Shown piece after piece: positions 5,007 to 62,505 of a stretch of 64,000 bases of DNA. How positions within the stretch are numbered: position 1 is the stretch's first letter; every line of letters starts with the position of its first letter. The position numbers and the translations under genes are program-made. Location: IMG/VR virus record IMGVR_UViG_3300037471_000830, one strand, 5' to 3'. The notes under the pieces were generated by a model. It was not told the DNA's origin and did not search any database. It saw only the letters and a list, made by a program, of their open reading frames with translations. Source of the DNA: a virus (taxonomy: Duplodnaviria; Heunggongvirae; Uroviricota; Caudoviricetes).

Positions 5007-5149
5007 TCAAAACTGCCTCAAAATAATAAGTCGCCACTGAGCTACAATAAGCCCGTGACGATGACGAGCTAAACACTCAGATTCGTCACATCCTTAGTCA
5101 CTCACAACTGACTGCTTTCATCTTCACGACAGATAGACTGGAACTTCAA

Positions 5150-5965
5150 ATGGATTTCTCCAAGCTCAAGCAGACCGCCAAGCAACAAAAGGCCGCCCTC
5201 GCCAAGCGCGAGCGCAACCTGACCCTCAAGCCGGGCAGCCAGCGCATCGTCCTGATGCCCGGCTGGAGCCCCGAACAGCGCGAGGTCTTCTTCCACGCCT
5301 ACGGTGCCCACTACGTCAAGAACGCTGCTGGTGAAGTGCAGGCTTTCCTGCCCTGCCCGAACGCCTCGTTCGGCGAGCCGTGCCCGGTGTGCGATGCCGT
5401 TGCCACCGCGATCAAGAACTCGCCGAGCGACGAGATGACCGAGATGCTCAAGGAAGCCAAGTCCGGCAAGCGTTTCCTCATCAACGTGCTGGCCCTGGAC
5501 GGCGAGGAGCCCAACACGCCCAAGACCCTGGAAGTGCCGAAGGTGGTGTTCGAGAACATCGTCGGCCTGATGGAAGATTGGGGCGAGGCGATCTTCGATC
5601 CCGAAAACCCGACCATCATCTCCATCGAGAAGACCGGCAAGGGCCTGGGCACCCGCTACACCGTGCAGGTGTCGCCGAAGAAGCACAAGCTGCCGGCCGC
5701 CGCGCTGTCGCAGATTCCGAACCTGGAAGAAGCCGTTCGCGCCTACAGCGACGAGGACATCAAGCGCGCCCTGGGTGCGGTCCACGCCGCTGCGGGTCTG
5801 CTGCCGGCCGCTGATGTGCCTCGCACCGCGTCCACCGCTCCGCGCCTGGCTCACAGCCGGCCCGCCGATGTGGAAGACGCCAAGCCGGCTGTGAAGCCCG
5901 CTGCACCGTCGCTGGACGACGACCTGGACTCGCTGCTGGGCGACGACCTCGAACTGGCCGCCTGA
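5150..5965 (+). CDS. putative ssDNA-binding protein (T4 gp32-like architecture: Cys-rich metal site, acidic DDDLDSLLGDDLELAA C-terminal tail)
   Basis: CPNASFGEPCPVCD zinc-site-like motif, RFLINVL core, acidic tail typical of SSB partner-binding tails; sits in replication module. Confidence 0.5.
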   Translation: MDFSKLKQTAKQQKAALAKRERNLTLKPGSQRIVLMPGWSPEQREVFFHAYGAHYVKNAAGEVQAFLPCPNASFGEPCPVCDAVATAIKNSPSDEMTEMLKEAKSGKRFLINVLALDGEEPNTPKTLEVPKVVFENIVGLMEDWGEAIFDPENPTIISIEKTGKGLGTRYTVQVSPKKHKLPAAALSQIPNLEEAVRAYSDEDIKRALGAVHAAAGLLPAADVPRTASTAPRLAHSRPADVEDAKPAVKPAAPSLDDDLDSLLGDDLELAA

Positions 5966-5984
5966 TCGGTCTTCAAGGCACCTG

Positions 5985-6014
5985 AAAGGGCTGGCTTCGG
6001 TCAGCCCTTTTTCA
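5985..6014 (+). terminator. rho-independent terminator hairpin (AAGGGCTG-gcttcggt-CAGCCCTT + TTTTC)
   Basis: perfect 8-bp GC stem followed by T-run immediately after CDS 5150..5965. Confidence 0.6.
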
Positions 6015-6027
6015 TCCAGGAACTTGC

Positions 6028-6936
6028 ATGAGCAAACTCGGACTCATCGACGGTAATTCGGTGGGCTACGCCTCGAATTACGCCATGAAACTCACCAGTG
6101 GCGACCAGGAGACCCAGGCGGTATTCGGGTTCCTGCGCACACTGCGAGAAGTGGCTGTGACCTACCCGGACTACGGCCTGATAACGCTGTGGGATGGTCG
6201 CGCCACCTGGCGCTTCGATATTTATCCCGACTACAAGTCCAATCGGGAAGCCGACGCCAAGAAGGTCGCCTTCAAGGACTCCTACGTGTCGCAGCGTCCG
6301 TATATCCAGCGTTGCTTGCAGCACCTGGGCGTGCGCCAAATCACTGCGATGACGCATGAGGCGGACGACATGGGTGGACTGCTGGTGAGCAATCTGTCCA
6401 AGGTTCCGGGCTCGAAGATCACGGTCTTCACCGGCGACCAGGATTGGCTGCAATTCGTCAAGGAAAACGTGAGTTGGCGCGACCTGCGCGACGACAGCCG
6501 CCAGATCAACGCCAAGAACTTCCAGGAGAAAACGGGCTACGCCAACCCAATGGCATTCCTCGAAGGGAAATGCCTGATGGGCGACACGTCGGACGTGATC
6601 CCTGGCGTGGGCGGCGTGGGCGAAAAGCGCGCGAAGGAGCTGCTGGCGGAATTCGGGTCCGTGCGCACCTTCTGGAAGAAGGTCGAAGCCGGCGAGCACG
6701 TTCCGCGTCTTGCTTGGCAGAAAAACCTTGCGACCAAGGAAGCGAAGGCTGCGTTCCTGCGCAACCTGAAGCTCATGCAACTGATGAAGGTGCCCAAGCC
6801 AAACCGTGAGGATATTCGCGACATCCGTGGCGGCTTCGATAAAGAGGCGTTCGCGAATGTCTGCGAAGAACTCGCATTCACATCCATCCTCCGCACGCTC
6901 GACAAGTTTGTCGAACCCTTCCAACCGAAACACTAG
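6028..6936 (+). CDS. 5'-3' exonuclease / flap endonuclease (RNase H-like, PIN-5'nuclease family)
   Basis: conserved acidic clusters (IDGNS..., TGDQDWLQF, MGDTSDVIPGVGGVGEKRA HhH segment) typical of Pol I 5'-exo/T4 RNase H/T5 D15. Confidence 0.8.
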   Translation: MSKLGLIDGNSVGYASNYAMKLTSGDQETQAVFGFLRTLREVAVTYPDYGLITLWDGRATWRFDIYPDYKSNREADAKKVAFKDSYVSQRPYIQRCLQHLGVRQITAMTHEADDMGGLLVSNLSKVPGSKITVFTGDQDWLQFVKENVSWRDLRDDSRQINAKNFQEKTGYANPMAFLEGKCLMGDTSDVIPGVGGVGEKRAKELLAEFGSVRTFWKKVEAGEHVPRLAWQKNLATKEAKAAFLRNLKLMQLMKVPKPNREDIRDIRGGFDKEAFANVCEELAFTSILRTLDKFVEPFQPKH

Positions 6937-6947
6937 GATAAAACATC

Positions 6948-7955
6948 GTGAGTCTCGAATCCTTCCTCAAAGAGCTGGACGAAGCAGTTGGCGAAAATGC
7001 CGACAACCAAATGGTGACGCAGTGGATTAACACCGGGAATCCGCTGCTCAACAAGATTATTTCCGGCAAGCACGACGGCGGCCTGCCCTACGGTCGGCTG
7101 CTGGAGATGTTCGGTGAGTCCAGCACGGGCAAGACGGCTCTGGCAACGCAGTGGATGGTGGAGGCGCAGCGCATGGGCGGCGTCGCTGGCTTCATTGATT
7201 GGGAGCGCAGCTTCAACGTGGAAATGGCGCGCGGCTTCGGGCTGAACGACAAGCGTCCGCACTGGTTCTACTTCAAGCCGAAGACTTGGGAGGAGGGTAA
7301 CAAGATCGCAACCAAGGCATGTCAGGCAATCCGCAAGCACAAGGGCATCCCCGACGACGCGCCGATCCTGTTCGTGTTCGACTCCATCGCCGCCGCTCTG
7401 CCCAAGTCGATGGCGGAAAAGGAGATCGACGAATACTCCATGAATGACACCACGGCGCTGGCTCGCGTGACCTCCACCACGCTCAAGGCCCAAGCGCAAT
7501 GGGCGGAAGAATTCAACGCCACCTTCCTGTACCTGAACCAGATTCGCCTGAAGCCGGGCGTGGTGTACGGCGATCCGCGGACCACCCCGGGCGGCAAGGC
7601 AATGGAGTATTACGCTTCCGCCCGCCTGGCCCTGGGTCGCCAGAAGATCATGGAGACCAAGGACGGCGAGAAGGAATTTGTGGGGCAGCAGATTTCGGTC
7701 CAATGCACCAAGTCCAAGTTCACCAAGCCGTTCAAGGAAACCAACCTGCGCATGTCCTTCAATGACGACGGCGTGGCGAGTTTCGACATGGCAACGTCCC
7801 TGCTGGAGCACGCGATCGAGCACAAGCTCCTGACCTCGGGCGGCCCGCGCGTAACCTGGACGGACGGCAAGGCGTATTTCAAGAAGCAATTGGCGCAGAA
7901 GATCAACGATGAAGGACTGATGCCTGAATTGGTCGCCATCGTGAAAGCTGCATAA
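6948..7955 (+). CDS. uvsX: RecA-family recombinase (UvsX-like)
   Basis: Walker A GESSTGKT, RecA-like core, GTG start; located between FEN and Mre11/Rad50 genes. Confidence 0.8.
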   Translation: MSLESFLKELDEAVGENADNQMVTQWINTGNPLLNKIISGKHDGGLPYGRLLEMFGESSTGKTALATQWMVEAQRMGGVAGFIDWERSFNVEMARGFGLNDKRPHWFYFKPKTWEEGNKIATKACQAIRKHKGIPDDAPILFVFDSIAAALPKSMAEKEIDEYSMNDTTALARVTSTTLKAQAQWAEEFNATFLYLNQIRLKPGVVYGDPRTTPGGKAMEYYASARLALGRQKIMETKDGEKEFVGQQISVQCTKSKFTKPFKETNLRMSFNDDGVASFDMATSLLEHAIEHKLLTSGGPRVTWTDGKAYFKKQLAQKINDEGLMPELVAIVKAA

Positions 7956-8024
7956 GCCAAGCTCCCCAAGTGCCCTTTCTGGCTATATTGACTTCATAGT
8001 CAATGTGTCAGGAGGGCACGATTC

Positions 8025-8870: not shown

Positions 8871-9232
8871 TGCGCGTCGTGCCCGTGATCCGCGACTCCA
8901 AACCTGCGGGCGCCTTCTACCACCTGGACGACGGCCGGGTGATCTACCTGGCCCGTCGCCAGCGTCGGCACCTGATCATTCCAGGCAACGCCTGGGCCTT
9001 CGACACCATGATGCTGCGGCGCTGCGAGGCCGAAGGCGTCAGCGCCATCGGCGTGTTCGTCAAGACCGGCCGCCTGTTCTGGCTCACCCCGCTCAAGGAC
9101 ATCCGCGAATCGCCGAAGGCGTTCCGGCCCTGGGTCAAAGGCGAGCGCCTGTACGCGCTGCCAGCGGAAGCATTTCGCGTTCGCCCCTCCAAGCGGTTCG
9201 AGAACATCGAAAAAGCCATGCGCATCCGATGA
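8870..9232 (+). CDS. hypothetical protein
   Basis: ATG 8870 overlapping previous stop; ORF track 8855..9232. Confidence 0.5.
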   Translation: MRVVPVIRDSKPAGAFYHLDDGRVIYLARRQRRHLIIPGNAWAFDTMMLRRCEAEGVSAIGVFVKTGRLFWLTPLKDIRESPKAFRPWVKGERLYALPAEAFRVRPSKRFENIEKAMRIR

Positions 9233-9507
9233 CCAATCCTGAACTCATGCTGCACAATTCAAATCAGTCATCACTGAGCAACAAAGACGCAATGATCTAT
9301 TCAAAGGACAAGTCCATCAACACCACGGTGCGATGCCTGCTACGCGCGGGTTGGAGTGTGAAGTCGCGCAAGCGCCATTTAACGATCACGGACGGTCGCT
9401 ACACCGTTTCCGTGCCGACCTCGCCGAGCGACCACCGCACCGCGCTCAACTGGCACTCGCAAATCCAGCGCACGACCGGCGTGAACTTAGCCGCTCTCGG
9501 ATGCTGA
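9229..9507 (+). CDS. small hypothetical protein with weak HicA/YcfA-like pattern (GW..KRH..TVSVP)
   Basis: ATGA overlap with upstream gene; in-frame within ORF 8656..9507; family call is weak. Confidence 0.35.
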   Translation: MTNPELMLHNSNQSSLSNKDAMIYSKDKSINTTVRCLLRAGWSVKSRKRHLTITDGRYTVSVPTSPSDHRTALNWHSQIQRTTGVNLAALGC

Positions 9508-9917
9508 TCGCCACCGCTACTTTGTGCCTGGCTGTCAACGTGTACCAGGAGGCCCGTGGGGAACCCATCCCGGGCCAGTACGCGGTGGCGTTCGTGACGA
9601 TGCAGCGAGCCAAGCAGGACCGCAAGAAGGTCTGCAAGGCGGTGTTCGAGCCCTGGCAGTTCTCATGGACCGTCAAGGGCGCAAGGAAAGAGGGCATCGG
9701 CTGGCGAGTCGATACGCCCAAAGAGAAGGATGCGTGGAAAACGGCGCAGATCGTCGCCGACCAAGTGCTTGCGGGCCGGATACCGAACTGGCTGGGTCCG
9801 ATGACGCACTACCACGCGAGGGAAGTCAAGCCACGGTGGCGGCTGGCGATGACGCGCATCAAGACCATTGGCCGCCACATCTTTTACCGATCGAATCAGT
9901 CAGGAGTGACATCATGA
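9501..9917 (+). CDS. SleB/Hydrolase_2-family cell wall hydrolase (candidate endolysin)
   Basis: motif NVYQEARGEP...AVA.V..QRAKQ...WQFSWT matches SleB-type amidase signature; ATG 9501 in frame of ORF 9333..9917. Confidence 0.7.
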   Translation: MLIATATLCLAVNVYQEARGEPIPGQYAVAFVTMQRAKQDRKKVCKAVFEPWQFSWTVKGARKEGIGWRVDTPKEKDAWKTAQIVADQVLAGRIPNWLGPMTHYHAREVKPRWRLAMTRIKTIGRHIFYRSNQSGVTS

Positions 9918-13319: not shown

Positions 13320-14257
13320 TGAACAAGGACGACGAGAGGATGAAGGTCTTCTCGTCGCTTGCGGTCCTCAAACCGGAAGCGGCGGGAAAGATCATCCTGA
13401 CCTCCACACCAAGCGGCGCCTCTGACCGCTTGATTCACCGCATGATGAAGGCCAAGCCGTTCGAGTTCACGCTGGACAAGCGAATGAACGAAATCGCCAA
13501 GTCGAGAAATCCCGCCTCGGAAGTGCCCATGATCACCGGGAGAACGTTCGACAAGGTGTGGATGGACGAGGCCGCCTCCATAAAGGCGGAGGACTTTGCG
13601 AAATTGTTCCTGACATCGCCCGACCTTGGCGGTTCTACAATCTCAACATCAGTCAGCACTGAAGCATCAAAGTCCGTCAGTTACGAGGACTTGATCGACC
13701 TCTCCAAGAGCCTGGAGAAGACGACGGGCAGGCACTACACGGCCAGCTCCATCAAAGACGCCACATCTGCAATGGAGGCGTTCTTTGCGCCCAAGAACAA
13801 GGATGAACCCATGACCACGCGCACCCTGGAAGACTTGCCCTGGAAGATTCAGAAGGCCGTTGCCGAAGACCATATCGCCGAACTCGACGCCGCCATTGGC
13901 ATGGGCGAGAACATCGACGTGGCCCTGTCTGGCCCGCGCAAGCTCACCGTGAAGGAGGGCAGCGGCTACAAGGTCAAGGCGCATATCGGCGGCGAGGACT
14001 TCCGACTGGTCGGTGCCTACATCGGATCGCGCAAAGGCCCGATCCTCAAATTCAAGCCGCTGAGCCCCAGCGCCTACGCTCACGCTGAAGTCCCTATCGC
14101 CGAGTGCATGGAAGCCTTCGACGGCAACTTGATGCGCCGGCTGTCGGACCTCATCGACACGAACATGGACCTGCCCGAGCCGGAACCGGCCACCGGCACG
14201 CCCGTGAAGCTCGACGCCCGGCGCGTCGCCACCTACGAAGACTTTGGATCGTTCTGA
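13319..14257 (+). CDS. hypothetical protein
   Basis: ATG 13319 overlapping previous stop (TAATG); ORF track 13238..14257. Confidence 0.55.
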   Translation: MNKDDERMKVFSSLAVLKPEAAGKIILTSTPSGASDRLIHRMMKAKPFEFTLDKRMNEIAKSRNPASEVPMITGRTFDKVWMDEAASIKAEDFAKLFLTSPDLGGSTISTSVSTEASKSVSYEDLIDLSKSLEKTTGRHYTASSIKDATSAMEAFFAPKNKDEPMTTRTLEDLPWKIQKAVAEDHIAELDAAIGMGENIDVALSGPRKLTVKEGSGYKVKAHIGGEDFRLVGAYIGSRKGPILKFKPLSPSAYAHAEVPIAECMEAFDGNLMRRLSDLIDTNMDLPEPEPATGTPVKLDARRVATYEDFGSF

Positions 14258-14260
14258 GCC

Positions 14261-14833
14261 ATGAAAATCAAGCTGGTGGGCTTTGACCCCGCAGTCCGCA
14301 ACCTGGGTATCGCCTGGGCCACTTACAACACCGACACGGGCGAACTGGATGTAGAGAAGTTGCGCCTGGTGAAGACGGAAAACCAGGCCGGCAAGACTGT
14401 GCGCAAAAGCTCCGACGATATGCGACGCGGTAGGATTCTTCACGAAGCCATGACCGATTGCTGTCGCACCGCAGCCATCGCCATCGCAGAGATACCGGAA
14501 GGCACACAGTCGGCGCGCGGCGCCATGTCCAACGGCATCTGTATCGGTGTGCTGGTGGGTTGCCCCATTCCGTTGATCGAAGTGGCGCCCAACGACACAA
14601 AGTTGGCGGCGGTAGGCATCAAGACCGCTACCAAGGGCGAGATGATTGCCTGGGCTGTAGCGAAGTACCCAGACCTCAACTGGCTGCGCCAGAAGCGCAA
14701 GGGCGTCATGGAGCTGATCAATGACAACGAGCACCTGGCCGACGCCATTGGCGTGCTGCACGCCGGCGTGAAGACCGCTGAGTTCAAGGCGGCGGTGGGC
14801 TTTTTCCGTTCCGCAGCAGTCAGTCACTCATGA
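14261..14833 (+). CDS. RuvC-like Holliday junction resolvase
   Basis: KLVGFDPAVRNLGIAWA (RuvC GIDPG.R.TG-like) and C-terminal DA.GV motif; in recombination module. Confidence 0.65.
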   Translation: MKIKLVGFDPAVRNLGIAWATYNTDTGELDVEKLRLVKTENQAGKTVRKSSDDMRRGRILHEAMTDCCRTAAIAIAEIPEGTQSARGAMSNGICIGVLVGCPIPLIEVAPNDTKLAAVGIKTATKGEMIAWAVAKYPDLNWLRQKRKGVMELINDNEHLADAIGVLHAGVKTAEFKAAVGFFRSAAVSHS

Positions 14834-15336: not shown

Positions 15337-15430
15337 GCGCAAATTTCATCTTCCGCACATAGTCAGTCACGACTGAGCTAAATTAGAATCTCGCCCCCGA
15401 TCAACCCGCAACACACTCAAGGAAGTACCT

Positions 15431-17704: not shown

Positions 17705-17727
17705 TCATCAGTCACTACTGAGAAATG

Positions 17728-19136: not shown

Positions 19137-19191
19137 GTTTCCACAAAAGATCACTCATTGCTGATCTACAATAAGGGCATGCGGCTCAACA

Positions 19192-19407: not shown

Positions 19408-19479
19408 ACTGCGGTTCTAAAGTTCAGTCATCGCTGAAGCGATAAGCGTTCAAATTTCACACACAAGGAGAAAGCGTTC

Positions 19480-20295: not shown

Positions 20296-20411
20296 TAAGT
20301 CACGACTGAGAGCTAGGGCTTCGGCCCCGACTTTATCACGCAAGTCACAGTCCAACGACCGAGACTTCATGACGAAACCCTTTTCCAACCACAACAGAGG
20401 ATCACTCGCAA

Positions 20412-22455: not shown

Positions 22456-22531
22456 TTTCTTTCCTGAGTAGGTCAGTCAATGCTGACCTACTCTTAAACC
22501 ATCGCAACCAATAGCCGAGAGGACACAAACC

Positions 22532-24617: not shown

Positions 24618-24655
24618 GAACTTCCGAAACATCACTCACTACTGAAGGAAAGAGA

Positions 24656-25492: not shown

Positions 25493-25555
25493 CCCTTGCA
25501 TATCCTATCGTCAGTGCTGACAATCAGTCAGTGCTGACGATCTATAAGGAGCATC

Positions 25556-26444: not shown

Positions 26445-26514
26445 ACTCAGTCAATAGTGAGATACTTGCATGGCGGTCAGGATGGTCGCCATGCCTCAAA
26501 ACAGGAGATGAACC

Positions 26515-26975: not shown

Positions 26976-27038
26976 ACTAAGTCACTCCTGAGTTCTGGTG
27001 TGACCATTCAAGGGTTGAATCTGCTTTGAGAGGAGATT

Positions 27039-34089: not shown

Positions 34090-34288
34090 CCAAGCCCTTG
34101 TGGGCCTACCGAACTACGCTATAGTTCAGTCATCGCTGAGCGACACAAGACGAACAGCGCCGACGCCAAGCAGAGTGAAGATAGCCAAGCAAGACGCTTG
34201 CGAGTCCGAAGGTCGGTTGCGATAGTTCAGTCATCGCTGAAGCGATACCCGCAAACTGGAACGCGCAATGTTGCGCAAGGAGAAAGCA

Positions 34289-35161: not shown

Positions 35162-35216
35162 CACGGTTTGGGCGGCTTCGTCCGCCCTGAACGATCATTC
35201 ACTACTGAGGAACCAA

Positions 35217-37017: not shown

Positions 37018-37218
37018 GTGTCCAGTCCTAAGTTTCTGAACGATCCCGAGGACGTACAGTGGCTGTTCGCCACGCACCTGAAGGACAAGAGCAATCCTGG
37101 TGTTCAGTCATTTCTGATCTATGGGAACGAGGACGCGCCGGAGCGGGTGATCGGCTTCGCGTCCAACGATCCCCTCCTGAGCGACGTGCCCGTCCTTGAC
37201 GTGGTGCTCGCCGCGTAA
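37018..37218 (+). CDS. hypothetical small protein
   Basis: GTG start preceded by TATTTAAAT; ORF track. Confidence 0.35.
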   Translation: MSSPKFLNDPEDVQWLFATHLKDKSNPGVQSFLIYGNEDAPERVIGFASNDPLLSDVPVLDVVLAA

Positions 37219-38262: not shown

Positions 38263-38320
38263 CTCAATCCTAAGTCAGCACTGAATAATCAATTCATCGC
38301 AACGAAGCGAGAACCCGCAA

Positions 38321-40248: not shown

Positions 40249-40436
40249 GCGCCGGCCAGCTCTACCAACTGGCGTCCAAGCGCCAGCTCCAGAAAGGCGA
40301 CTACGTGGCGGTGAACGGACCCTGGGACCGCTTCGGCGTGGTCTGGAAGTCCGAGCCGCAGCCCGATGGCGGCTTCCTCAACCTGATCCGTGGTGTGGCT
40401 GCGCGCCGCTTCACAAAGCCCGTGATGGAGTTCTGA
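40245..40436 (+). CDS. hypothetical small protein
   Basis: ORF track; start-stop coupling. Confidence 0.4.
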   Translation: MSAGQLYQLASKRQLQKGDYVAVNGPWDRFGVVWKSEPQPDGGFLNLIRGVAARRFTKPVMEF

Positions 40437-45468: not shown

Positions 45469-45738
45469 GATGAATTTCGGTGTCGGTTGTTTCGGGAGCC
45501 CTCAGTATCTGAAGTGGGCGCAGGATCGTGGCGCTCCAAATTCAGGTTGCCTCAGAGGTCGCCGATGCCGGCAAGAAAGCCTAGGCATCTAAGCCCCAGC
45601 GCCAGGCTCTAAGCCGCTGTCCTAGGCTTTCCATGGCGCGCTTGCATGCCTGCGCAGCTTGCCTGGGGTCCGCCTGAAGCGGGCTTGCATAGTTCAGTCA
45701 TCGCTGAACTACAGCACAAACCAGACCGAGGAGTGATC

Positions 45739-46130: not shown

Positions 46131-46140
46131 TCGCGCGACG

Positions 46141-46162
46141 GGAGCCTGTGGGCTCCTTCTCT
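46141..46162 (+). terminator. rho-independent terminator (GGAGCC-tgtg-GGCTCC + TTCTCT)
   Basis: perfect 6-bp GC stem plus T-rich tail. Confidence 0.55.
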
Positions 46163-46799
46163 ATGGGCCAGAGAACGCCTAGGACCGTCTGCCAGCGCCT
46201 TGGAGCGCGGCGGCATGGCTGGATTCCTTTGGCTTTGGAGAGCGCGGCGGCGCTGTAGAGGGCTCTGGAGAGGCTGCTGGTGCCTTGGAAAGCCGGCAAT
46301 GCCATGGAAAGCCTAGGCGTTGCTGGAGATGGATTTGGAGCTCTGGATTTCGGAGTACGGCGGACTGGCTGGAAATCCTTGGATTTTTGTGTACGGCGGC
46401 GAGGCTGGAAACGTTAGGAGTAATATCGCGCGGCGGGGCAGGGCGGTCGCTCAAAACCGCAGGTCGCCTTTTCGAGCGCGAGCGGCCGAATCCACGACAG
46501 AAGCCAAAATCCGCGTCAGAAGTCATTTCCACTGGAAATGCGAAAAACCGCAGGAGTCGCGGTTTTCACCGGAAAAGCGAATATGCGCAGGAGTCGCAGT
46601 TATTGCGACTGACGCGGGTTCCATGGGTTTTACGGGTCCACCAGTCTTTACGCTTTTTGGGTTTATTCCAGAAAGTTCGTTCCGCGTTGAATGGGGGCAT
46701 GCATAAGTCAGCAGTGAGTGCATAATGGGCACCAGTTCGCAGCACGGTGCAGCGAACGAAGCAGAGCAAAGTTGCTCAGTCACTAGTGAAAGGTTTCAC

Positions 46800-47703: not shown

Positions 47704-47774
47704 ATAATAAGTCAGTGGTGACTGTTTCACGTGAAACGGTCACCCCGCAAGTAAATCAGCAAAGCACTCAGATC

Positions 47775-49182: not shown

Positions 49183-50796
49183 TCAGGCCGCCTTCTTCAG
49201 GTCGGGGAAGCCTTCGGCGTCGTAATCGAAGTCCGCGCCGCCCAACAGGATGCCTTCGGCAAAGCCTGGGGTGTTGGACACGATCTCTCGGCGCTGCTTG
49301 GCGTGCTTCATCAGGTTCTCGTTGAAGCGGTCCTCGAAGTCCACGATGAAGCAGGTGTTCGGCCCCGCCTTCTTCGCCCGCAGGCCGCGACCGACACGCT
49401 GACGCAGCGCGACCTCGGCCTTGCCGCCACCGGCCAGGATCACCATCCCCACAGCCGGCACGTCCACACCCACATCCAGGATGGTCGTGCCAATGAGCAC
49501 GTCGAGCTTGCCGCTGCTCAGGGCTTGCAGCGCCCGCTTGCGCCCGACCTGATCGTCCTCACCCTGGATAAAGCTCGCCCGCAGACCCCGAGCCTCCAGC
49601 AGCTCCATCAGCCGCTCGCCGTGCTTCTTGTGCTGAACCAGCGCCATGACGGTGAGGCCACGGCCGACCGCGCGGTGAGCCTCGAAGGCAATCGCCTGGT
49701 TGCGCTCCTCGTTCTGCACGATGCCCAGCCGGTAAGCCGCCTGCCAGGCGGTGTTGCGCATCAGGTGCTCGGGCTTGGTGTGGAGCTGCACGAACTTGAA
49801 GATCGGGCGGGCCAGGATGCCGCGCTCGATGAGGGTCTGCTCCGAGACACGGATGGCGATCGGGCCGGAGGACGCCATCAGCCGCATGTTGGCTTCTTCG
49901 TCGCTGCGCATGAACGGCGTGGCGGTCAGCGCCAGCCGGTAGTGCGCGTTGATGCAGTGGCGCAGGATGTCGTAGTACGAGTTGCCGCCCGCCTCGTGGG
50001 CTTCCTCCAGGATCACGAACTCGAACTTGGACAGCAGGTTGATGGTCTGCTCGCGCAGCAGGGCTTGCTGACGCTGCTTTTCCGGCGTGTCCTTCGGGTC
50101 AGGCTCTGCCAGGCGAGCCACCAGGGTCTGCACCATGCCCACGGACATTTTCTTGATCGCGCTGCGCTCACGGCCATCGGCACCGACGATGGTGTGACCA
50201 AACTGGCCGTCGCCGAGCACGGACACCGACTGCTTCAAGTCCTTCTCGAACGTGTCCTTCATTTGGTACATGAGGACCGAGCGCGTGGTCAGGAACAGGG
50301 TGGGGCGGTTGATGCGGGCGAATGCCAGGCGGGCGATGCGTGATTTGCCGCCACCCGTGGCGACCTGGGCAATGATTTGGCCGTGCTTCACCAGCCGGCG
50401 CACAACTTCGGGCTGATAGTCGTAGCGCGGGTCTTCCGGGAACTCATCGACCACGGGATTCTCGGGACCAAGTGGCGCGGGCATGGGCTTTCTGACAAGC
50501 CGCACTTCGTAGCCATCGCGCTTCAGGTGCGCAGTGACGAAATGCACGAACCCGGCAGGGAAGGTGCCCTTTTTGAAATCGAGAAAACTGGATTTGCCAT
50601 CCCAGCGGCCGGTCTTAAACAGCATCGTGTTTTCGTGACCGGCCACGGTGTACGAAAGCGCGGTCTGGACCAGCAATTTGGCGTCGCGGTCGGGCTCGTG
50701 CAACTTGGCCGTGACGGCATTGGCAAGAATGGTGATCGTCTTCATTTTGGCTGTGGCTTGACCGCGCTCCATAAGGACATTATTATAAGTCATCAC
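49183..50796 (-). CDS. SF2 DEAD/DEAH-box DNA helicase (UvsW-like)
   Basis: motif I ATGGGKS, motif II ILEEAH, motif III LTATP, motif VI QRVGRGLR; alternative start at 50745 (MKTITIL). Confidence 0.8.
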   Translation of the reverse strand: MMTYNNVLMERGQATAKMKTITILANAVTAKLHEPDRDAKLLVQTALSYTVAGHENTMLFKTGRWDGKSSFLDFKKGTFPAGFVHFVTAHLKRDGYEVRLVRKPMPAPLGPENPVVDEFPEDPRYDYQPEVVRRLVKHGQIIAQVATGGGKSRIARLAFARINRPTLFLTTRSVLMYQMKDTFEKDLKQSVSVLGDGQFGHTIVGADGRERSAIKKMSVGMVQTLVARLAEPDPKDTPEKQRQQALLREQTINLLSKFEFVILEEAHEAGGNSYYDILRHCINAHYRLALTATPFMRSDEEANMRLMASSGPIAIRVSEQTLIERGILARPIFKFVQLHTKPEHLMRNTAWQAAYRLGIVQNEERNQAIAFEAHRAVGRGLTVMALVQHKKHGERLMELLEARGLRASFIQGEDDQVGRKRALQALSSGKLDVLIGTTILDVGVDVPAVGMVILAGGGKAEVALRQRVGRGLRAKKAGPNTCFIVDFEDRFNENLMKHAKQRREIVSNTPGFAEGILLGGADFDYDAEGFPDLKKAA

Positions 50797-50810
50797 TGAC
50801 TTCTATAAGC

Positions 50811-52406: not shown

Positions 52407-53044
52407 AACCCAACATCCAAGTCTGGTCCGTCGAGGACGTGAAGCCCTACGAGGCCAACGCCAAGAAGCACCCACCCGAGCAGATTCGTCGCATCGCCAA
52501 GTCGATCAAGGAGTTCGGCTGGACGCAGGCCATCTCCGTGGACAAGGACGGCGTGATCATCGCCGGCCACGGCCGCCGCCTGGCTGCGATGGAGCTGGGG
52601 CTGAAGCAAGTGCCGGTGTGGGTGCGTGACGACCTCACGCCGGAGCAGGTCCGCGCCGCGCGGCTGGCCGACAACCGCGTGGCCGAGTCCGAGATCGACA
52701 CCAACCTCCTGCAAGCCGAGCTTCGCGCGTTGGACTTCGACCTCTCTGGCATCTTCGACGACAAGGAGCTGGCCTTCCTGGATGCCGACTTGGCCGAGCT
52801 CAACGCCGACGCCTTCGTCGCTGATCTGGACGCCGAAGTGGAGCGCCAGGCCGAGGAGACCCGCGCCAAGATCAAGGAAGTGGACGAGCGCACGATCCGG
52901 CTGGACCAGGCGTTCGGCTTCAAGAGCATCAAGGGCGCCGATGAGCGGGCGATTGCCATGTTCATGGCGCAGATCGAGAGCGAGACCGGCAAGGAGGGCG
53001 CCGAGGCCCTGGTCGAGCACGTCAAAACCTACCGCGGAAAGTAA
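52403..53044 (+). CDS. ParB N-terminal-domain nuclease-like protein (second copy)
   Basis: VIIAGHGRRLAAMELG ParB box. Confidence 0.6.
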   Translation: MKPNIQVWSVEDVKPYEANAKKHPPEQIRRIAKSIKEFGWTQAISVDKDGVIIAGHGRRLAAMELGLKQVPVWVRDDLTPEQVRAARLADNRVAESEIDTNLLQAELRALDFDLSGIFDDKELAFLDADLAELNADAFVADLDAEVERQAEETRAKIKEVDERTIRLDQAFGFKSIKGADERAIAMFMAQIESETGKEGAEALVEHVKTYRGK

Positions 53045-53051
53045 GTCATAA

Positions 53052-53459
53052 ATGACTGCCAAAAAAGTTGCCGCCAAGACCGAGGCCGTTGCCGCTACGA
53101 CGCGCGGCCTCATTACCGACGAGCAGGTTTATGCCGCCATGCCGCGCGTCGTGAAGGTCGGCTGCTATGACTTCACCATCGAGGTCATGGACGAAATCGA
53201 GGGCAACGCCAGCGATGCCTTTGGCTACTGCTATCCCGGCAAGCAGACGATTCGTCTCCTGTCTGGACTCAAGCGCCAAAAGCTCGCCAACGTCTTCCTG
53301 CACGAAGTCCTGCACGGCATCCACTGGTTTCACGGCCTGGGTGACGAGAACAACGAGGAGGACTTCACCCTGCTGGGCGCCAACGGCATGTGCGCCTTCT
53401 TCCAGGACAACCCGGACGCCGCGGCCTGGTTCATGGCGGCCAACAAGGGGGCGCGATGA
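53052..53459 (+). CDS. small HExxH zinc metallopeptidase-like protein (SprT-like)
   Basis: FLHEVLHGIHW motif with upstream GY.YPG..IRL pattern reminiscent of SprT/WLM family. Confidence 0.45.
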   Translation: MTAKKVAAKTEAVAATTRGLITDEQVYAAMPRVVKVGCYDFTIEVMDEIEGNASDAFGYCYPGKQTIRLLSGLKRQKLANVFLHEVLHGIHWFHGLGDENNEEDFTLLGANGMCAFFQDNPDAAAWFMAANKGAR

Positions 53460-55248: not shown

Positions 55249-56170
55249 AGTCCTGCTGGACAACGAGGAGCTGCGCGTCGAGCGCCGGGAGGTTCCCAAG
55301 GACCACCGGCTCTCGCTGCTGTCGCGCTGCTACATCGAGGCGGGCACCAAGGACGATTGGAACCTGCTGCACGAGCTCCACTACAAGGCGGAGCGGCTGG
55401 GCATCGGCCCGCGCTACTGGCGCTGCGTCATGGACGGGCAGACCATCGGCGTGGGCGTCATGACCGTGCCCAAGATGCTCCTGTCCGGGCGCAACAAGGC
55501 GTTCAAGCACCTGAAGCCCAACCAGGGTGGCGGGCGCGACACCAAGCTCATGAACCGCCACCGCGCCGTGTGGATGAACGAGGTCATCTGCACCAACTCG
55601 CGCCTGGTCCTGGACACCATGTATCGCGGCGCCGGCCTGGCGTACCGGATGCAGAACCTGATGATGCGCATGACGGGCTGCCAGAGCATCGAGTTCCAGT
55701 CCTCGATGTCCAAGTTCAACCCGTTTGCAGAACGGGCTGGCATGCGCTTCACCAAGCCGTCGCGCGCTCAACACTACGAGCGGGGCCTGAAATGGTTCCG
55801 CCGCTGGTTCGAGTGCAACCCGTCCGACTTCGTGGGCCTGATGGACGAGCTGCAAGCCATGCCGGAGCGAGCCAGAGACAAGTGCGTCGCCGAGATGCGC
55901 CATCTTTATTACGCATGCTCTGCCATGGAGAAGTCCGGCGACAACCGCATGAACGGCACTTCGCGGGTGGATGGCATGTCCGTGCCTTACCTGATCAAGT
56001 CCTTGCAGCAGTTGATCCTCGCCAGCCCGCTTTATGGCGTGTACCTCAACCCTGATTTCGGCCGCGAGCTGCCTGATCGCATTCCTGTGCTCGCCTTTGA
56101 TCTCCAGGCCGTCGATCAACCGCTGAACCTTGAGGGCGTAAATCGCCTGAGCGCCGAAATAAATCAGTGA
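55235..56170 (+). CDS. hypothetical protein with GNAT-like motif A (LDTMYRGAGLAYRM)
   Basis: ORF track; GNAT call is weak, single-motif based. Confidence 0.5.
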   Translation: MRAAEVLLDNEELRVERREVPKDHRLSLLSRCYIEAGTKDDWNLLHELHYKAERLGIGPRYWRCVMDGQTIGVGVMTVPKMLLSGRNKAFKHLKPNQGGGRDTKLMNRHRAVWMNEVICTNSRLVLDTMYRGAGLAYRMQNLMMRMTGCQSIEFQSSMSKFNPFAERAGMRFTKPSRAQHYERGLKWFRRWFECNPSDFVGLMDELQAMPERARDKCVAEMRHLYYACSAMEKSGDNRMNGTSRVDGMSVPYLIKSLQQLILASPLYGVYLNPDFGRELPDRIPVLAFDLQAVDQPLNLEGVNRLSAEINQ

Positions 56171-56535
56171 CCGCCGTGACTAGCTCCGCAGACCTCTACC
56201 TGACCACCAAGCAGATTCAGCTTATCTCCGTGGTGGGCCAGCGTAATGACGATGGTTCCGCCATCGACCTTGACGAGTTGCTCGAAAGGCTGCCGTACCA
56301 GCCCTCCAAGCAGAGCGTGCAGTTCAGCCTCAGAGCCCTGGTCAAGCGCGGACTGCTCGCCAAGTCCGAGGCCACGGAGCTGCGGCGCGGCCGCAAACGC
56401 CGGCTCCTGGAGCTGACCGAGGCCGGCAAGACCTTCCTTGGAAGCCGCGCCCGCTCCCATTCCGCGACTTCCTTCATGGTTGCGGCTGACGAAGACGAGG
56501 GCTTGGAAGCCCTTGAGGCGCTGAAAATTGGTTGA
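56167..56535 (+). CDS. winged-helix (PadR/MarR-like) DNA-binding protein
   Basis: QFSLRALVKRGLLAKSE...RRGRKRRLLELTEAGK helix-wing pattern. Confidence 0.45.
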   Translation: MTAVTSSADLYLTTKQIQLISVVGQRNDDGSAIDLDELLERLPYQPSKQSVQFSLRALVKRGLLAKSEATELRRGRKRRLLELTEAGKTFLGSRARSHSATSFMVAADEDEGLEALEALKIG

Positions 56536-56822
56536 CTTCGACAACTTGTTTTTTTACCCCCTCAGCGTAAATATATATAGATAAGAAGAAGAACAGAGAA
56601 AGCTAAAACGTTTACGCTGAGCGAGGCGAAAAACAAGTCCAAGCTAAGTCAACGCTGACAGGGCGGAACGGAAAACGCAGCCCCAAAGAAGCCGCCAACA
56701 TGACCCGAAGCTACCCACGCCGCCCCTCACCGGATTGGCGGTCTCCCAAGCCCCTCAAAACGCGCCGGAACGTGACCGCGCTCGCGGTGCTCGCCCCGGT
56801 CTTCTCGTTGCATCAAAGATCA

Positions 56823-56863
56823 GTCAGCACTGACTTGACAAACGCCAAGGCATCGGTTATCTT
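56823..56863 (+). promoter_or_regulatory. sigma70-like promoter (TTGACA - 17 nt - TATCTT) overlapped by GTCAGCACTGAC palindrome, upstream of terS
   Basis: TTGACA 56835..56840; -10-like 56858..56863. Confidence 0.4.
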
Positions 56864-56932
56864 TGGCGCTCCTTTCAAAGTCATATCCCAGGGCGCCTTC
56901 TCCAGCGCCCATTTTTTTGCCCATTCGAGCCC

Positions 56933-58839: not shown

Positions 58840-58870
58840 CGCCTTTGTAAGTCATCACTGAGCTACAATC

Positions 58871-60520: not shown

Positions 60521-60589
60521 TCAATACCCGGCCGAGAGAGCGGCCGGTCTTCAACCCCCAACGACCGAGAGAAAGGTCAAGGAGTAAAC

Positions 60590-61426
60590 ATGCCTCTGTG
60601 GAAACAAGCCCTTCTGGCTCGCCTGAAGATGAACAAGGCCGACGACGGCCTGGGTGGCGGTGGTGGCGGTGGCGGCACCGACGACAAGGGCGGCGCTGAC
60701 AAGACCCCGCCCGAAGACAAGGGCGGCGACAAGAAGCCCACGGACGAGGAGGCCAAGCTGATCAAGGAGGTCATGAAGCGCAAGGAGGAAGCCCAGGCGC
60801 TCAAGGCCCAGCTCGACCAGGCCAATGGTCTCAAGGCTCAGCTCGACGCCCTGGGCGGCCTGGAGGCGCTGCAAGCACTGGTCAAGGAGCGCCAGGATGC
60901 CGAGACCAAGGCCCTGGAAGCCAAGGGCGACTACGAGCGCCTGAAGGGCAAGATGGCCGAGGCTCACGCCAAGGAAATCGACACCCTCAAGGCTCAGGTT
61001 GCCGAAGCCGGCAAGGCCGTCGAGGGTCTGAAGGCGCAGCTCATGGAAGCCACCGTGGGCAGCGAGTTCGGTCAGTCCTCGTTCATCAAGGACGAGCTGC
61101 TGCTGACGCCCTCCAAGACGCGCGCCCTGTACGGCTCGCATTTCGACTTCGTGGACGGCAAGGTGGTGGGCTATGACAAGCCGCGTGGTGCCGCCAGTCG
61201 CACGCCGCTGGTCGATGGTGCGGGCGTGCCCGTGAGTTTCGACGCCGCGATGAAGGCGATCATCGAAGCCGATCCCGAAAAGGATCACGTGCTCAAGAGC
61301 AAGGCCAAGCCTGGCGCCGGTAGCGATTCCAATCGCGGCGGCTCAACGCCGAAGAAGCCGGAATACTCCAGCGGCCTGGATCGTATTTCTGCAGGCCTGG
61401 CCCAATTGACCAAGGGCCAGAAGTAA
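60590..61426 (+). CDS. scaffolding protein (putative)
   Basis: Gly-run then long Ala/Lys/Glu coiled coil, located between portal and MCP. Confidence 0.55.
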   Translation: MPLWKQALLARLKMNKADDGLGGGGGGGGTDDKGGADKTPPEDKGGDKKPTDEEAKLIKEVMKRKEEAQALKAQLDQANGLKAQLDALGGLEALQALVKERQDAETKALEAKGDYERLKGKMAEAHAKEIDTLKAQVAEAGKAVEGLKAQLMEATVGSEFGQSSFIKDELLLTPSKTRALYGSHFDFVDGKVVGYDKPRGAASRTPLVDGAGVPVSFDAAMKAIIEADPEKDHVLKSKAKPGAGSDSNRGGSTPKKPEYSSGLDRISAGLAQLTKGQK

Positions 61427-61458
61427 TTCTGATCGCTGCCTTAATAAGTCACTGATGA

Positions 61459-61488
61459 CTTGACAATTTGGCATTGTCCATGTTATAT
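61459..61488 (+). promoter_or_regulatory. sigma70-like promoter (TTGACA - 17 nt - TTATAT) flanked by two copies of the AAGTCA-N4-TGACTT palindrome
   Basis: -35 TTGACA 61459..61464, -10 TTATAT 61482..61487; palindrome 61445..61460 overlaps -35, second palindrome 61491..61507. Confidence 0.55.
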
Positions 61489-61561
61489 TGTCAGTCATCG
61501 GTGACTAAGAGCGACGTTAGCCTCCGAAGCAATCCACCCCAATCTGTAGAAGGACACTGAG

Positions 61562-62479
61562 ATGCCTTTGCTTCGTGCTGTGGCTGACAAGCTCAGCGAG
61601 AACGATCTGGTTGCTGGCGTGATCACCGAGATCATCGACCGCGACGAACTGTTTGCCCTGGTGCCGTTCACCAAGACCAGCGGCAAGGCTTACGTTTACA
61701 ACCGTGAGCACCCCGACAACCTGGCGAACGAGATGTCCGGCTTCATCGCTTCCGGCGATGAGATCCAGGAGTCGAGCGCCGACTTCAACACCGTCACGAG
61801 CCTGCTCAAGATTCTGGCTGGCGACGTGGACGTGGACAAGTTCTCGATGGAAGTCGAGAGCGACGTGAACGACCAACTGGCGATCCAGATCGCCCTGAAG
61901 GCCAAGTACGTCGCCCGCAAGTTCCGCGAGAAGCTGATCAACGGCGACAGCGCGGTGAACCCGCTGGAGTTCGACGGCCTGAAGAAGTACGTGTCGCAGA
62001 CCGGCCGCGAGTTCGCTGCCGGTGCCAACGGCGCGGCTCTGAGCCTGGGCATGCTGGACGAGCTGGTGGACATGGTGCCGGCTGGCGTCGATGCGCTGAT
62101 GATGAACGGCCGCACGATCCGCAAGTACCGCGCCCTGCTGCGCGCCACGGGCGGCAACGACGCGGCGATGATGGAAATCCCCAACTTCGGCGTGCCGGTG
62201 CTGGGCTTCAACGGCATTCCCATCATCCGCAACGACTTCATCGCCACCAACGAGGCCCAGGGCACCGCGAACGACGCCACGTCGATCTACGCGCTGCGCC
62301 TGAACGAGCTGGACGGCTTCCATGCCCTGTTCGGCGGCGACGCTGCCGGCCTGCGCATCGAGTCGATCGGCACGGTGCAGAACAAGGACGCGCTGCGCAC
62401 CCGCGTGAAGTGGTACTGCGGCACCGCGCTGAAGTCCACGCTGAGCCTGGCCCGCCTGAAGGGCGTGACCGCTGCCTGA
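61562..62479 (+). CDS. major capsid protein (HK97-fold, putative)
   Basis: 305 aa, follows scaffold, strong promoter and RBS (GAAGGACACTGAGATG), strong terminator downstream; HK97-like composition. Confidence 0.65.
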   Translation: MPLLRAVADKLSENDLVAGVITEIIDRDELFALVPFTKTSGKAYVYNREHPDNLANEMSGFIASGDEIQESSADFNTVTSLLKILAGDVDVDKFSMEVESDVNDQLAIQIALKAKYVARKFREKLINGDSAVNPLEFDGLKKYVSQTGREFAAGANGAALSLGMLDELVDMVPAGVDALMMNGRTIRKYRALLRATGGNDAAMMEIPNFGVPVLGFNGIPIIRNDFIATNEAQGTANDATSIYALRLNELDGFHALFGGDAAGLRIESIGTVQNKDALRTRVKWYCGTALKSTLSLARLKGVTAA

Positions 62480-62505
62480 TAATAAGTCAGCACTGACGTA
62501 AAATA

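Follow-up and report, generated by a model that had tools for sequence, protein, structure and literature searches.

What does a short, imperfectly palindromic box do when it recurs between the genes of a phage in a single orientation? The question is raised by the tailed phage (Caudoviricetes) recorded as IMGVR_UViG_3300037471_000830, of which we analysed a stretch of 64 kb (hereafter the window) together with 10 kb on either side of it in the source contig, out of a full genome of about 112 kb. The initial annotation, made from the sequence alone, had proposed that the box is a phage-specific regulatory signal, be it an operator or activator box, an RNA stem-loop or a processing site. We tentatively favour, at somewhat less than even confidence, the view that it would be the DNA site of a dimeric regulator encoded by the phage and would mark the phage's own promoters. 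No description of the box was found in the open full-text literature on RHEph10, SSU5 and pHCM2, subscription literature lying outside the search.

Regulation in phage-plasmids of the SSU5/pHCM2 type, to which this phage belongs, is essentially uncharted, and the supergroup is widespread, including Klebsiella and E. coli plasmids with OXA-48 and KPC in their record names. The box unifies this large and clinically relevant group under one testable regulatory element. Its presence across members from Alpha-, Beta- and Gammaproteobacteria provides an experimental handle on the lytic programme, which predicts a promoter set and suggests one candidate regulator gene, and would also improve the annotation of transcription units in the ~110-kb phages of the group.

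Identification and anatomy of the box

The consensus derived from 35 aligned sites, T[C/A]AGTCA-nnR-CTGA, is a half-palindromic sequence of 14 bases. The pattern AGTCANNNSTGA has 30 matches in the window, versus 0.90 ± 0.95 expected from dinucleotide shuffles, and none of 100 shuffles reaches 30, which disposes of the possibility, contemplated in the initial annotation, that the motif is no more frequent than in shuffled sequence. Counting of gapped k-mers de novo in intergenic DNA gave AGTCAnnnCTGA as the top motif (18 observed, 0.03 expected). A 14-column weight matrix recovers 35 sites on the + strand, 30 of them with the core wholly intergenic (binomial p = 4e-22, for a window that is 13% non-coding), and 0.5 matches in block-shuffled sequence; on the - strand it gives 8 matches, all of which are near-palindromic + strand sites, with no independent site. 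Gene calls were heuristic and made within this analysis, and 99 of the 106 called genes are on the + strand.

Columns T5, C6, T12, G13 and A14 of the box never vary, T1, A3 and A7 keep their base in at least 90% of the sites, and the central nnR is free to vary. Ten positions of the box reach a conservation of 90% or more. The box is an incomplete dyad, AGTCA and TGA(C/G)(T/c) with 4 bp between them, strong in its left half and weak in the right one. It is because the half-sites AGTCA and TGA(C/G) are conserved, 4 bp apart, around a free spacer that a dimeric regulator is contemplated.

One or more boxes are found in about 25 of the 51 intergenic gaps of at least 20 nucleotides (nt), with median distances of 18 nt past the upstream stop codon and 48 nt ahead of the next start codon. 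Ten boxes lie no more than 10 nt from a stop codon, three straddle a gene junction (9896, 14820, 53042) and three are intragenic or in doubtful open reading frames, ORFs (9896, 13649, 37104), while a block of 7.4 kb (38.3-45.7 kb) is free of boxes. All the sites of the initial annotation exist, although a few coordinates were 2-13 nt off (19140 is 19151, 38275 is 38271, 46711 is 46704 and 50795 is 50786), and the tandem pair at 25507/25524, the twins at 34126/34227 and the long arms at 22470 (GAGTAGGTCAG/CTGACCTACTC) were borne out. A gap of 1-5 nt between the end of the box and a start codon was confirmed just for 9896, 14820 and 53042; in the remaining start-proximal boxes it is 8-11 nt. About 36 boxes are listed in the window:

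3971..3984, + strand, box TCACTCACCACTGA (left half weak), 11 nt ahead of ATG 3996, AGGAG after it
5027..5040, + strand, box TAAGTCGCCACTGA, then GC and TACAAT
5098..5111, + strand, box TCACTCACAACTGA (weak), gp32-like gene at 5150, 38 nt downstream
9264..9277, + strand, box TCAGTCATCACTGA
9896..9909, + strand, box TCAGTCAGGAGTGA, 4 nt ahead of ATG 9914, within the end of the upstream ORF
13649..13662, + strand, box TCAGTCAGCACTGA, intragenic, in ORF 13319-14257
14820..14833, + strand, box-like TCAGTCACTCATGA, spanning an ATGA stop/start junction
15363..15376, + strand, box TCAGTCACGACTGA, then GC and TAAATT; precedes a gene for 757 amino acids (aa), like ribonucleotide reductase (RNR) by homology to RHph_Y2_11
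17708..17721, + strand, box TCAGTCACTACTGA, 3 nt past a stop codon, then hairpin AAAGGCCC-TTCG-GGGCCTTT
19151..19164, + strand, box TCACTCATTGCTGA, then TC and TACAAT, 6 nt, ATG 19192
19424..19437, + strand, box TCAGTCATCGCTGA
20296..20309, + strand, box TAAGTCACGACTGA, adjoining stop TAG, hairpin after it
22473..22486, + strand, box TCAGTCAATGCTGA, within a palindrome with 11-bp arms, then CC and TACTCT
24632..24645, + strand, box TCACTCACTACTGA (left half weak), 10 nt ahead of ATG 24656
25507..25520, + strand, box ATCGTCAGTGCTGA, first member of the tandem pair
25524..25537, + strand, box TCAGTCAGTGCTGA, second member of the tandem pair, then TATAAGGAG and ATG 25556 (RNase T-like exonuclease)
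26447..26460, + strand, box TCAGTCAATAGTGA, 2 nt past a stop codon, hairpin after it
26978..26991, + strand, box TAAGTCACTCCTGA, 2 nt past a stop codon
30818..30831, + strand, box TAAGTCAGAGCTGA, 6 nt past a stop codon
34126..34139, + strand, box TCAGTCATCGCTGA, first twin, with flank ATAGTTCAGTCATCGCTGA common to both twins
34227..34240, + strand, box TCAGTCATCGCTGA, second twin, with flank ATAGTTCAGTCATCGCTGA
35195..35208, + strand, box TCATTCACTACTGA (weak), 8 nt ahead of ATG 35217
37104..37117, + strand, box TCAGTCATTTCTGA, within the weakly coding ORF 37018-37218
38271..38284, + strand, box TAAGTCAGCACTGA, the final one ahead of the 7.4-kb box-free block
45694..45707, + strand, box TCAGTCATCGCTGA, third copy with flank ATAGTTCAGTCATCGCTGA
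46704..46717, + strand, box TAAGTCAGCAGTGA, with ATGCA/TGCAT on either side, then CATAAT
46776..46789, + strand, box TCAGTCACTAGTGA, 11 nt ahead of ATG 46801
47708..47721, + strand, near-palindromic box TAAGTCAGTGGTGA(CT), parS-like 16-mer directly after it
50786..50799, + strand, symmetric box TAAGTCATCACTGA(CTT), in a divergent region, its first base being the last base of the -10 in TTGACC-N17-TATTAT
53042..53055, + strand, box TAAGTCATAAATGA(CT), including the upstream stop TAA and the ATG at 53052
56645..56658, + strand, box TAAGTCAACGCTGA, in the 397-nt spacer from the winged-helix gene to terS
56820..56833, + strand, palindromic box TCAGTCAGCACTGA(CT), whose TGACT adjoins TTGACA of the terS-leader promoter, centre at about -41.5
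58848..58861, + strand, box TAAGTCATCACTGA, then GC and TACAAT; portal gene ATG 1 nt and GTG 7 nt downstream, no Shine-Dalgarno sequence
61445..61458, + strand, palindromic box TAAGTCACTGATGA(CT), adjoining TTGACA of the capsid-gene promoter
61491..61504, + strand, box-like TCAGTCATCGGTGA(CT), at about +1 of the capsid promoter
62483..62496, + strand, box TAAGTCAGCACTGA, 3 nt past the capsid-gene stop, then CG and TAAAAT, 1 nt, and a strong terminator hairpin

Conservation of the box in related phage-plasmids

By homology and synteny, the window is a member of the SSU5/pHCM2 supergroup of ~110-kb phage-plasmids, SSU5/pHCM2 being a recognised phage-plasmid type. The syntenic terS-terL-portal-capsid-tail module, ParB-like genes, DNA polymerase III alpha, CobS/CobT and a size of ~105-120 kb are all found, and the gene order is that of RHph_Y2_11 and SSU5. 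The portal protein shares 54-55% identity with its counterparts in Salmonella phage SSU5 and in Klebsiella and E. coli phage-plasmids, 54% with those in the Rhizobium phages RHEph10 and RHph_* and ~50% with that in the Pseudomonas Nickievirus; nucleotide similarity to known phages is marginal. The Joint Genome Institute (JGI) contig carrying the window has 223,709 bp, about twice the 112-114 kb of its relatives, and probably represents a circular or terminally redundant genome assembled head to tail. In its part ahead of the window there are genes for CobT, a CobS-like ATPase and a Sigma70_r2 protein (215 aa; 4614-5261 of L006, a locus of the source contig), the latter ~0.75 kb from the window, between the CobS-like gene and DNA polymerase III alpha, with a box 8 nt before its gene.

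Relatives were sought by a terL scan in one genome per bacterial species, and nine were found in bacterial assemblies. Four of them (Massilia sp. TN1-12, Magnetospirillum molischianum DSM 120, Ancylobacter and Paracoccus) are contigs of 112.5-114.1 kb, which is consistent with plasmid prophages, and the others are contigs from a Paraburkholderia metagenome-assembled genome, MAG (449.9 kb), a Betaproteobacteria MAG (130.6 kb), Chelativorans (70.5 kb), Acinetobacter (47.3 kb) and a Qipengyuania MAG (11.5 kb). The box-carrying relatives (an IMG/VR relative designated L001, the nine assembly loci, RHph_Y2_11 and SSU5) show terL identities of 57-77%, and the closest (73-76%) are betaproteobacterial, which gives a hint at the host. 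Further labels used below are L004 for the 10 kb downstream of the window, L009 for Pseudomonas phage ZY21, L010 for SSU5 and L014 for the Acinetobacter locus.

Of the 12 relatives examined, 11 have an intergenic palindrome that is scattered over the sequence and contains the half-site AGT(C/A)A; ZY21 has none. In L001 it takes the form of a full palindrome, aTAGTCA-N4-TGACTAt, with 9 matches versus 0.31 expected; Massilia and Magnetospirillum have AAGTCA-N4-TGACTT, Paraburkholderia eight copies of AGTCAAAACTGACT, and the betaproteobacterial MAG mixed TAGT(C/A)AG sites. The variants with A in the half-site are AGTAAG-NN-CTTACT (Paracoccus, Acinetobacter), AAGTAA-N4-TTACTT (Qipengyuania), GTAAGT-N4-ACTTAC (Chelativorans, Ancylobacter) and ATAAGTA-N4-TACTTAt (SSU5). 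RHph_Y2_11 carries an 18-bp variant, TCAGT(A/C)AAT directly followed by ATTGA(T/C)TGA, at about 35 sites on both strands, oriented with the genes, and its asymmetric variants follow the strand of the downstream gene. In L001, L012, L013 and L015, 36 of 39 AGTCA-N4-TGA sites are intergenic, and the symmetric palindromes have no strand preference. Boxes occupy orthologous positions before terS, in the terL-portal gap, before the capsid gene (two sites), after the capsid gene, and both before and after the tail-tube gene. At the 61491 element only the right half (GGTGACTAGAG...) is kept in L001 and L018, so that it may be an element of the 5' untranslated region instead.

Other signals were observed in the same intergenic regions. 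In the 5' untranslated region of the capsid gene, the sequence GGTGACTA(A)GAG(C/A)GAC(G)TTAGNCC is kept where other intergenic DNA is unalignable (window 61497-61530, L001 12655-12690, L018 ~13915-13950). The leader of the tail-tube gene has a conserved hairpin sequestering or presenting the Shine-Dalgarno sequence (CCTCTTTGCAAAGGAG; GGAAAAAGGAGTTTTCC in enterobacterial members), located in the 5946 region of L004 and at L001 16950-16985, L012 18245-18275, L013 18275-18305 and L010 9100-9137. In the intergenic DNA of ZY21, -10-like hexamers are found inside short GC-rich palindromes, GCGCGTATACTCGCGC, GACGTGCATAATCGCGTC and GCGCTTGTAAAATGCAAGCGC, for example at 40393-40476, 42695-42785 and 46135-46217.

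Promoter context of the boxes

There are three sigma70-consensus promoters in the window, and each of them touches a box, at the end of the -10 in the case of 50758, at the -35 in that of 56835, and at the -35, with a box-like element at +1, in that of 61460:

50758..50786, + strand, sigma70-like promoter TTGACC-N17-TATTAT (10/12), for the operon from ParB_N to the winged-helix gene
56835..56863, + strand, sigma70-like promoter TTGACA-N17-TATCTT (10/12), followed by a ~48-nt leader, a terminator at 56891-56917 and then terS
61460..61489, + strand, sigma70-like promoter TTGACA-N18-TATATT (11/12, TG-extended), upstream of the major capsid gene

The boxes at sigma70 -35 elements pointed out in the initial annotation are thus present, with TTGACA adjoining the box at 56835 and 61460, and the arrangement of a box over the -35 or the start site is kept in L001, L012, L013 and L018. 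In the late gene block, the boxes are the sole recurrent signal.

TACAAT is found exactly 2 nt past CTGA at five sites (5027, 19151, 58848, and 6831 and 12321 of L004), two more hexamers being TAAAAT after 62483 and TAAATT after 15363. No -35-like hexamer was found 17 nt upstream of the -10-like hexamers that follow boxes. The dyad ends 0-5 nt before the hexamer, with its centre at about -20 to -23, an inverted repeat in place of the -35 as in promoters of the P1 type. The same juxtaposition is observed in RHph (TGATT-TACCAT), in L001 and L013 (TGAC-TATCAT) and in SSU5 (ACTTAC-CAT/TAT); when SSU5, Cyrano and pJN2-26 are aligned, the box proves to be conserved together with the TAC(C/T)AT next to it, and the hairpin that follows varies with compensatory substitutions. 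Overall, a -10-like TANNNT hexamer is clear at about 12 of 41 sites and there is none at about half of the sites. In the divergent region at 50.78 kb, the symmetric box has TATAAG 4 nt off on the + side and TATAAT adjoining on the - side, and since no gene lies upstream of it in either direction, this box is a 5' and not a 3' element.

Three genes without a Shine-Dalgarno sequence start 7-8 nt past the hexamer, namely the portal gene (GTG 58877, which aligns with the start of the L001 portal protein), L004 12349 and L001 10001, an arrangement whose sequence fits leaderless transcripts. The 'leaderless' status of 25524 and 19151 was downgraded, because TATAAGGAG and AAGGG can act as Shine-Dalgarno sequences.

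After the capsid gene, the order stop codon, box, TAnnAT hexamer, 0-4 nt and intrinsic terminator is found in the window (62483), L001, L012, L013 and RHph_Y2_11, and in weaker form in SSU5. A -10-like hexamer stands 0-4 nt before the terminator hairpin in every clade (window 62483-62532, L002 28672-28720, L001 13666-13710, L012 14973-15020, L013 14985-15030, L010 5470-5530), and ZY21 has no box at this place, yet keeps TATAAA and the terminator. A start 7 nt past this hexamer would lie in the 5' arm of the hairpin, so that such transcripts would escape the terminator that stops those coming from upstream. The layout upstream of terS is also of note: a consensus sigma70-type promoter, a ~48-nt leader and a strong intrinsic terminator (window 56835-56917) are present as well in L001 (7929-8010), L018 (~9197-9290) and ZY21 (~7190-7260), that is, including the box-less Nickievirus. 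By analogy, this layout may correspond to antitermination like that of lambda PR'-tR', or to an encoded small RNA.

These observations suggest how the box may work. In what would be its commonest setting, the box immediately precedes a -10-like hexamer (TGA, 2 nt, TAcAAT) that lacks a -35, and we infer that a protein bound there, centred at about -20, would replace -35 recognition and recruit the host RNA polymerase, like Lpa at the '-22 box' of P1. At the three sigma70-consensus promoters, the box-bound protein would modulate, and probably damp, promoters of the host type. The box could in this way be a genome-wide switch from a few host-type promoters to some 60 box-type promoters, and it is plausible that the boxes mark a temporal or regulatory class, as had been suggested from the beginning.

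A candidate binding protein

The regulator could be a winged-helix protein encoded directly upstream of the terS promoter region:

56167..56535, + strand, candidate box-binding winged-helix protein of 122 aa, with weak PadR/HTH_27 hits and a MarR-like model

Its Pfam matches to PadR/HTH_27 are below the gathering score, and in the JGI annotation it is named 'PadR family regulator'. The structural model has a predicted local distance difference test (pLDDT) score of 70 overall and of 75-90 over residues 11-90; with Foldseek its best matches among solved structures are MarR-family dimers (E = 0.01-0.08), and there is a weak fold match to the N-terminal domain of MotA (E = 0.075). The family comprises 385 representative clusters. 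The gene immediately precedes the terS intergenic region in the window, as do its homologues in 11 of 12 relatives, and in L015 there is a partial tblastn match at that place. Two forms exist, A of 107-122 aa and B of 80-94 aa, with the common pattern KQxE(I/L)...SY...SIRxL..G; the phages with AGTCA-type boxes have in common the helix TKAS(L/I)QFSIRAL, and the helix TKQSMQFSIRAL of SSU5_130 resembles that of the window, SKQSVQFSLRAL. We also considered that subtype A or B might track the C or A variant of the half-site, but the association is unclean, L014 and SSU5 being of type A with AGTAAG boxes. Pfam scans of 30 further proteins of the window, from the box-free block and after the double boxes, revealed no regulator. 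The proposal of the initial annotation that this protein could bind the box is a reasonable one, given its MarR-like fold and the position of its gene in the relatives, and we regard it as the leading candidate, its link to the box being circumstantial.

Comparison with known systems

Late genes of well-studied phages are under positive control. P1 has 11 late promoters, made up of a -10 and an inverted repeat of 9 bp to which Lpa binds, and the lpa gene immediately precedes pacA/pacB. Both P1 and the phage analysed here are plasmid prophages in which a palindromic box occurs in many copies before morphogenesis, lysis and other genes, a few bp upstream of a -10 in P1 and, at a subset of the sites, of a -10-like hexamer here, with no -35 in either; the packaging genes are directly preceded by lpa in the one (lpa-pacA-pacB) and by the candidate regulator gene in the other (winged helix-terS-terL). 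The arms are also alike, AAGT-T-ACTT at P1 LPhot versus AAGTCA...TGACTT and AAGTAA...TTACTT in the family. In contrast, the box has 14-18 bp here and 9 bp in P1, the gap to the hexamer is 0-5 nt here versus 4-9 nt in two P1 examples, and the ~36 copies in 64 kb are not late-only, versus 11 in the 95 kb of P1. The C1 operators of P1 offer a parallel in that one regulator acts on many scattered operators overlapping promoters of a ~100-kb plasmid prophage; C1 sites, however, are 17-bp asymmetric sequences on -35/-10 promoters, whereas here the site is a dyad and only 3 boxes are at full sigma70-type promoters.

The gp71 stoperators of phage L5 (Cluster A), present in about 30 copies per genome, are short intergenic sites, often at stop or start codons, in one orientation, with one of them on the early promoter. 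The box of the window shares with them the high copy number, the placement in short intergenic regions and the single orientation relative to transcription, but stoperators are strictly asymmetric and bound by a monomer, whereas the relatives studied here have perfect palindromes, many copies of the box are phased with -10-like hexamers, and host phylum and phage family are unrelated. In the middle promoters of T4 (MotA box plus -10, with AsiA), a box-bound phage protein replaces the -35 at dozens of promoters while -35-dependent ones are shut down, which is the logic proposed here; unlike the present box, that of MotA is a 9-bp non-palindromic sequence centred at -30 and read by a monomer, and no relationship to MotA or AsiA emerged here besides the weak match to the MotA fold. 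MarR-type winged-helix dimers bind pseudo-palindromes of 14-20 bp, as MarR/PadR operators show, although a typical MarR protein is a local, ligand-released repressor of one operon, versus ~60 sites in this case. Membership in the P1 late-promoter, C1, L5, MotA and KorB classes fails on protein homology or on site geometry, and the P1 late promoter is the closest functional analogue.

Activation, repression and other explanations

The boxes would form a phage-specific promoter or operator set defined by a regulator; as to the sign of regulation, from the sequence activation is a tentative choice falling a little short of an even chance, and repression is possible but rated lower. The operator or activator box put forward in the initial annotation agrees well with the conserved half-sites and free spacer, the dyad in relatives, the orthologous positions, the -10-like hexamers and the sigma70 promoters. 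Several facts nevertheless weigh against an activator. A protein centred at -20 or +3 is in a classical repressor position, MarR-type proteins are mostly repressors, and the consensus promoters of the capsid and terS genes need no activator. About half of the boxes of the window are without a convincing -10-like hexamer, and a paired comparison of the -10 score in the downstream and the mirrored upstream flank of 58 sites gave 12 versus 7 with a score of at least 5 (Wilcoxon p = 0.66), a non-significant result due in part to the flanks being palindromic themselves. Six boxes are 0-11 nt from a start codon, which leaves no room for a promoter, and several 'hexamers' at orthologous sites end in A (TATTAA, TATCTA, TATCCA), which is poor for sigma70. 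P1 Lpa gave no tblastn match below E = 4.8 in the window and all loci, and E = 0.93 against the winged-helix protein in BLASTP. Finally, the Nickievirus ZY21 has the winged-helix gene and no box, and Acinetobacter L014 has a divergent, ZY21-like recognition helix yet AGTAAG boxes.

Part of these facts would be accounted for if the box were the operator of a global repressor, or a stoperator-like roadblock, through which a prophage repressor acting on ~60 boxes would silence the lytic genes by promoter occlusion and elongation block, an explanation that we consider possible though doubtful. It would suit the phage-plasmid group to which the window belongs, with ~112-kb relatives present as whole contigs in bacterial assemblies, and also the MarR-like fold of the candidate protein and a box in the spacer or at +1, both classical repressor positions. 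All three sigma70-consensus promoters are boxed at the -35 or the start site, an arrangement kept in four relatives as described above, and the winged-helix operon, read from a sigma70-type promoter with a box at +1, has the layout of negative autoregulation; many boxes without a -10, just past stops or over stop/start codons (14820, 20296, 53042), in one orientation, are reminiscent of L5 stoperators. However, most box hexamers have no -35, so there would be little to repress, the spacing between box and hexamer is fixed across clades, which a pure roadblock does not need, and the symmetric sites of the relatives make orientation-dependent blocking not general. There is no homologue of P1 C1 in the window or its relatives, and homologues of the repressor, repressor-like, Xis-regulator and Ant proteins annotated in SSU5 were found neither in the window nor in any relative; besides, a separate class of motifs in early/maintenance regions (GGAAAGCCTAGGC here, AAACAARTTRKTT in SSU5) could be the operator of the repressor. 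It is improbable, in turn, that RNA polymerase with the phage Sigma70_r2 factor recognises the box itself as a promoter element, without a separate regulator. The 215-aa gene in the source contig has a box 8 nt before it and a counterpart at the same place in RHph_Y2_11, and the box follows the orientation of the genes and is tied to a -10-like hexamer, but its conserved blocks are 3-4 nt apart and form a dyad, which is not the geometry of -35/-10 (16-18 bp), nothing is conserved 17 bp to either side, the boxes of relatives are fully symmetric, and SSU5 carries boxes although no sigma gene is annotated in it and the syntenic place lacks one.

Still less probable is the binding of the box by the ParB_N proteins (50811-51470, 52403-53044), in the manner of KorB, or by a host factor, with a role in partition, condensation or global silencing. 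KorB of IncP binds 12 dispersed palindromes on RK2. The two ParB_N genes immediately follow the divergent box and are kept in L001 and RHph_Y2_11, and a box adjoins a parS-like site; nonetheless, ZY21 and SSU5 both keep two ParB-like genes, yet ZY21 is without the box, for which reason these proteins were disfavoured as binders, and the canonical parS beside box 47708 is a more natural target for them. A host factor is made less likely by the fact that phage clades with hosts of overlapping classes have different box variants. The least probable of these explanations, and a very unlikely one, is that the box acts in RNA, as a stem-loop, an endonuclease processing site or the site of a translational regulator in polycistronic transcripts. 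The coding strand bears all the boxes, which lie between genes and in some cases near Shine-Dalgarno sequences and start codons, and a few copies have extended arms (22473, 46704). However, in the 35 aligned sites pairing in the helices TCAGT/ACTGA and AGTCA/TGACT was no higher than in column shuffles (500/500 and 334/500 of which reach the observed value), the C2-G13 and G4-C11 pairs are each broken in 13 of 34 distinct sites, and changes on both sides of a pair affect 0 pairs in one helix and 1 in the other, C2-to-A and G4-to-C/T being uncompensated. Many copies form no more than 3-4 pairs, the box of the divergent region is upstream of both transcription units, sites in relatives are symmetric with no strand preference, and an Rfam scan at gathering thresholds and a tRNA scan were both empty. 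The stem-loop and processing site of the initial annotation were consequently abandoned. Resemblances seen by eye to a hammerhead, to promoters of T7-like single-subunit polymerases and to a tRNA D-arm were dropped too, the central bases being free and only subsets of sites matching.

Going back to the dimeric phage regulator, by analogy a dual role, damping a few host-type promoters and activating many without a -35, would reconcile the evidence for activation with that for repression. Precedents for such a dual role are p4 of phi29 and AsiA/MotA of T4. A more far-reaching scheme, which we put forward as a speculation with the odds against it, is that across the whole supergroup a single MarR-like winged-helix protein encoded next to terS would be the master lytic switch, with ~60 AGT(C/A)A palindromes near -20 substituting for the -35, in a manner convergent with but unrelated to P1 Lpa. 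Many of the promoters would lie within the upstream arm of intrinsic terminators, which would stop transcripts arriving from upstream and let box-initiated ones escape; if true, this layout would represent a compact design for insulation.

Other repeats and sites

The sequence TGTTTCACGTGAAACG at 47723-47738 differs at a single one of 16 positions (15 matches) from TGTTTCACGTGAAACA, the canonical chromosomal parS. It begins 1 nt past the box at 47708-47721 and opens a non-coding stretch of 625 nt, and two proteins with a ParB_N domain are encoded in the window, at the coordinates given above; judging from its sequence, this could possibly serve the plasmid prophage as its partition site. Between 43811 and 46323 another dispersed motif, GGAAAGCCTAGGC (often CATGGAAAGCCTAGGCG), is found in 5 exact and 4 near copies versus 1.7 expected, all of them in the gene-poor, box-free stretch, alongside the local repeats GGAGAGAAG and CACCCGTTTTCCA (three times near 43.65 kb). 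These repeats could be iterons or an origin, or else be recognised by a second regulator. Another oriented motif is found in SSU5 too, AAACAARTTRKTT, in 5 copies versus 0.02 expected (56-68, 81-93, 30449-30461, 34385-34397 and 42729-42741), upstream of terS (two copies), a ParA-like gene, dnaB and cobT, which constitutes a class separate from the AAGTAAGT boxes. Lastly, everted half-sites, ATTGACT-TCAT-AGTCAAT, are present at 7983-8002 of the window, in the 69-nt spacer ahead of ORF 8025.

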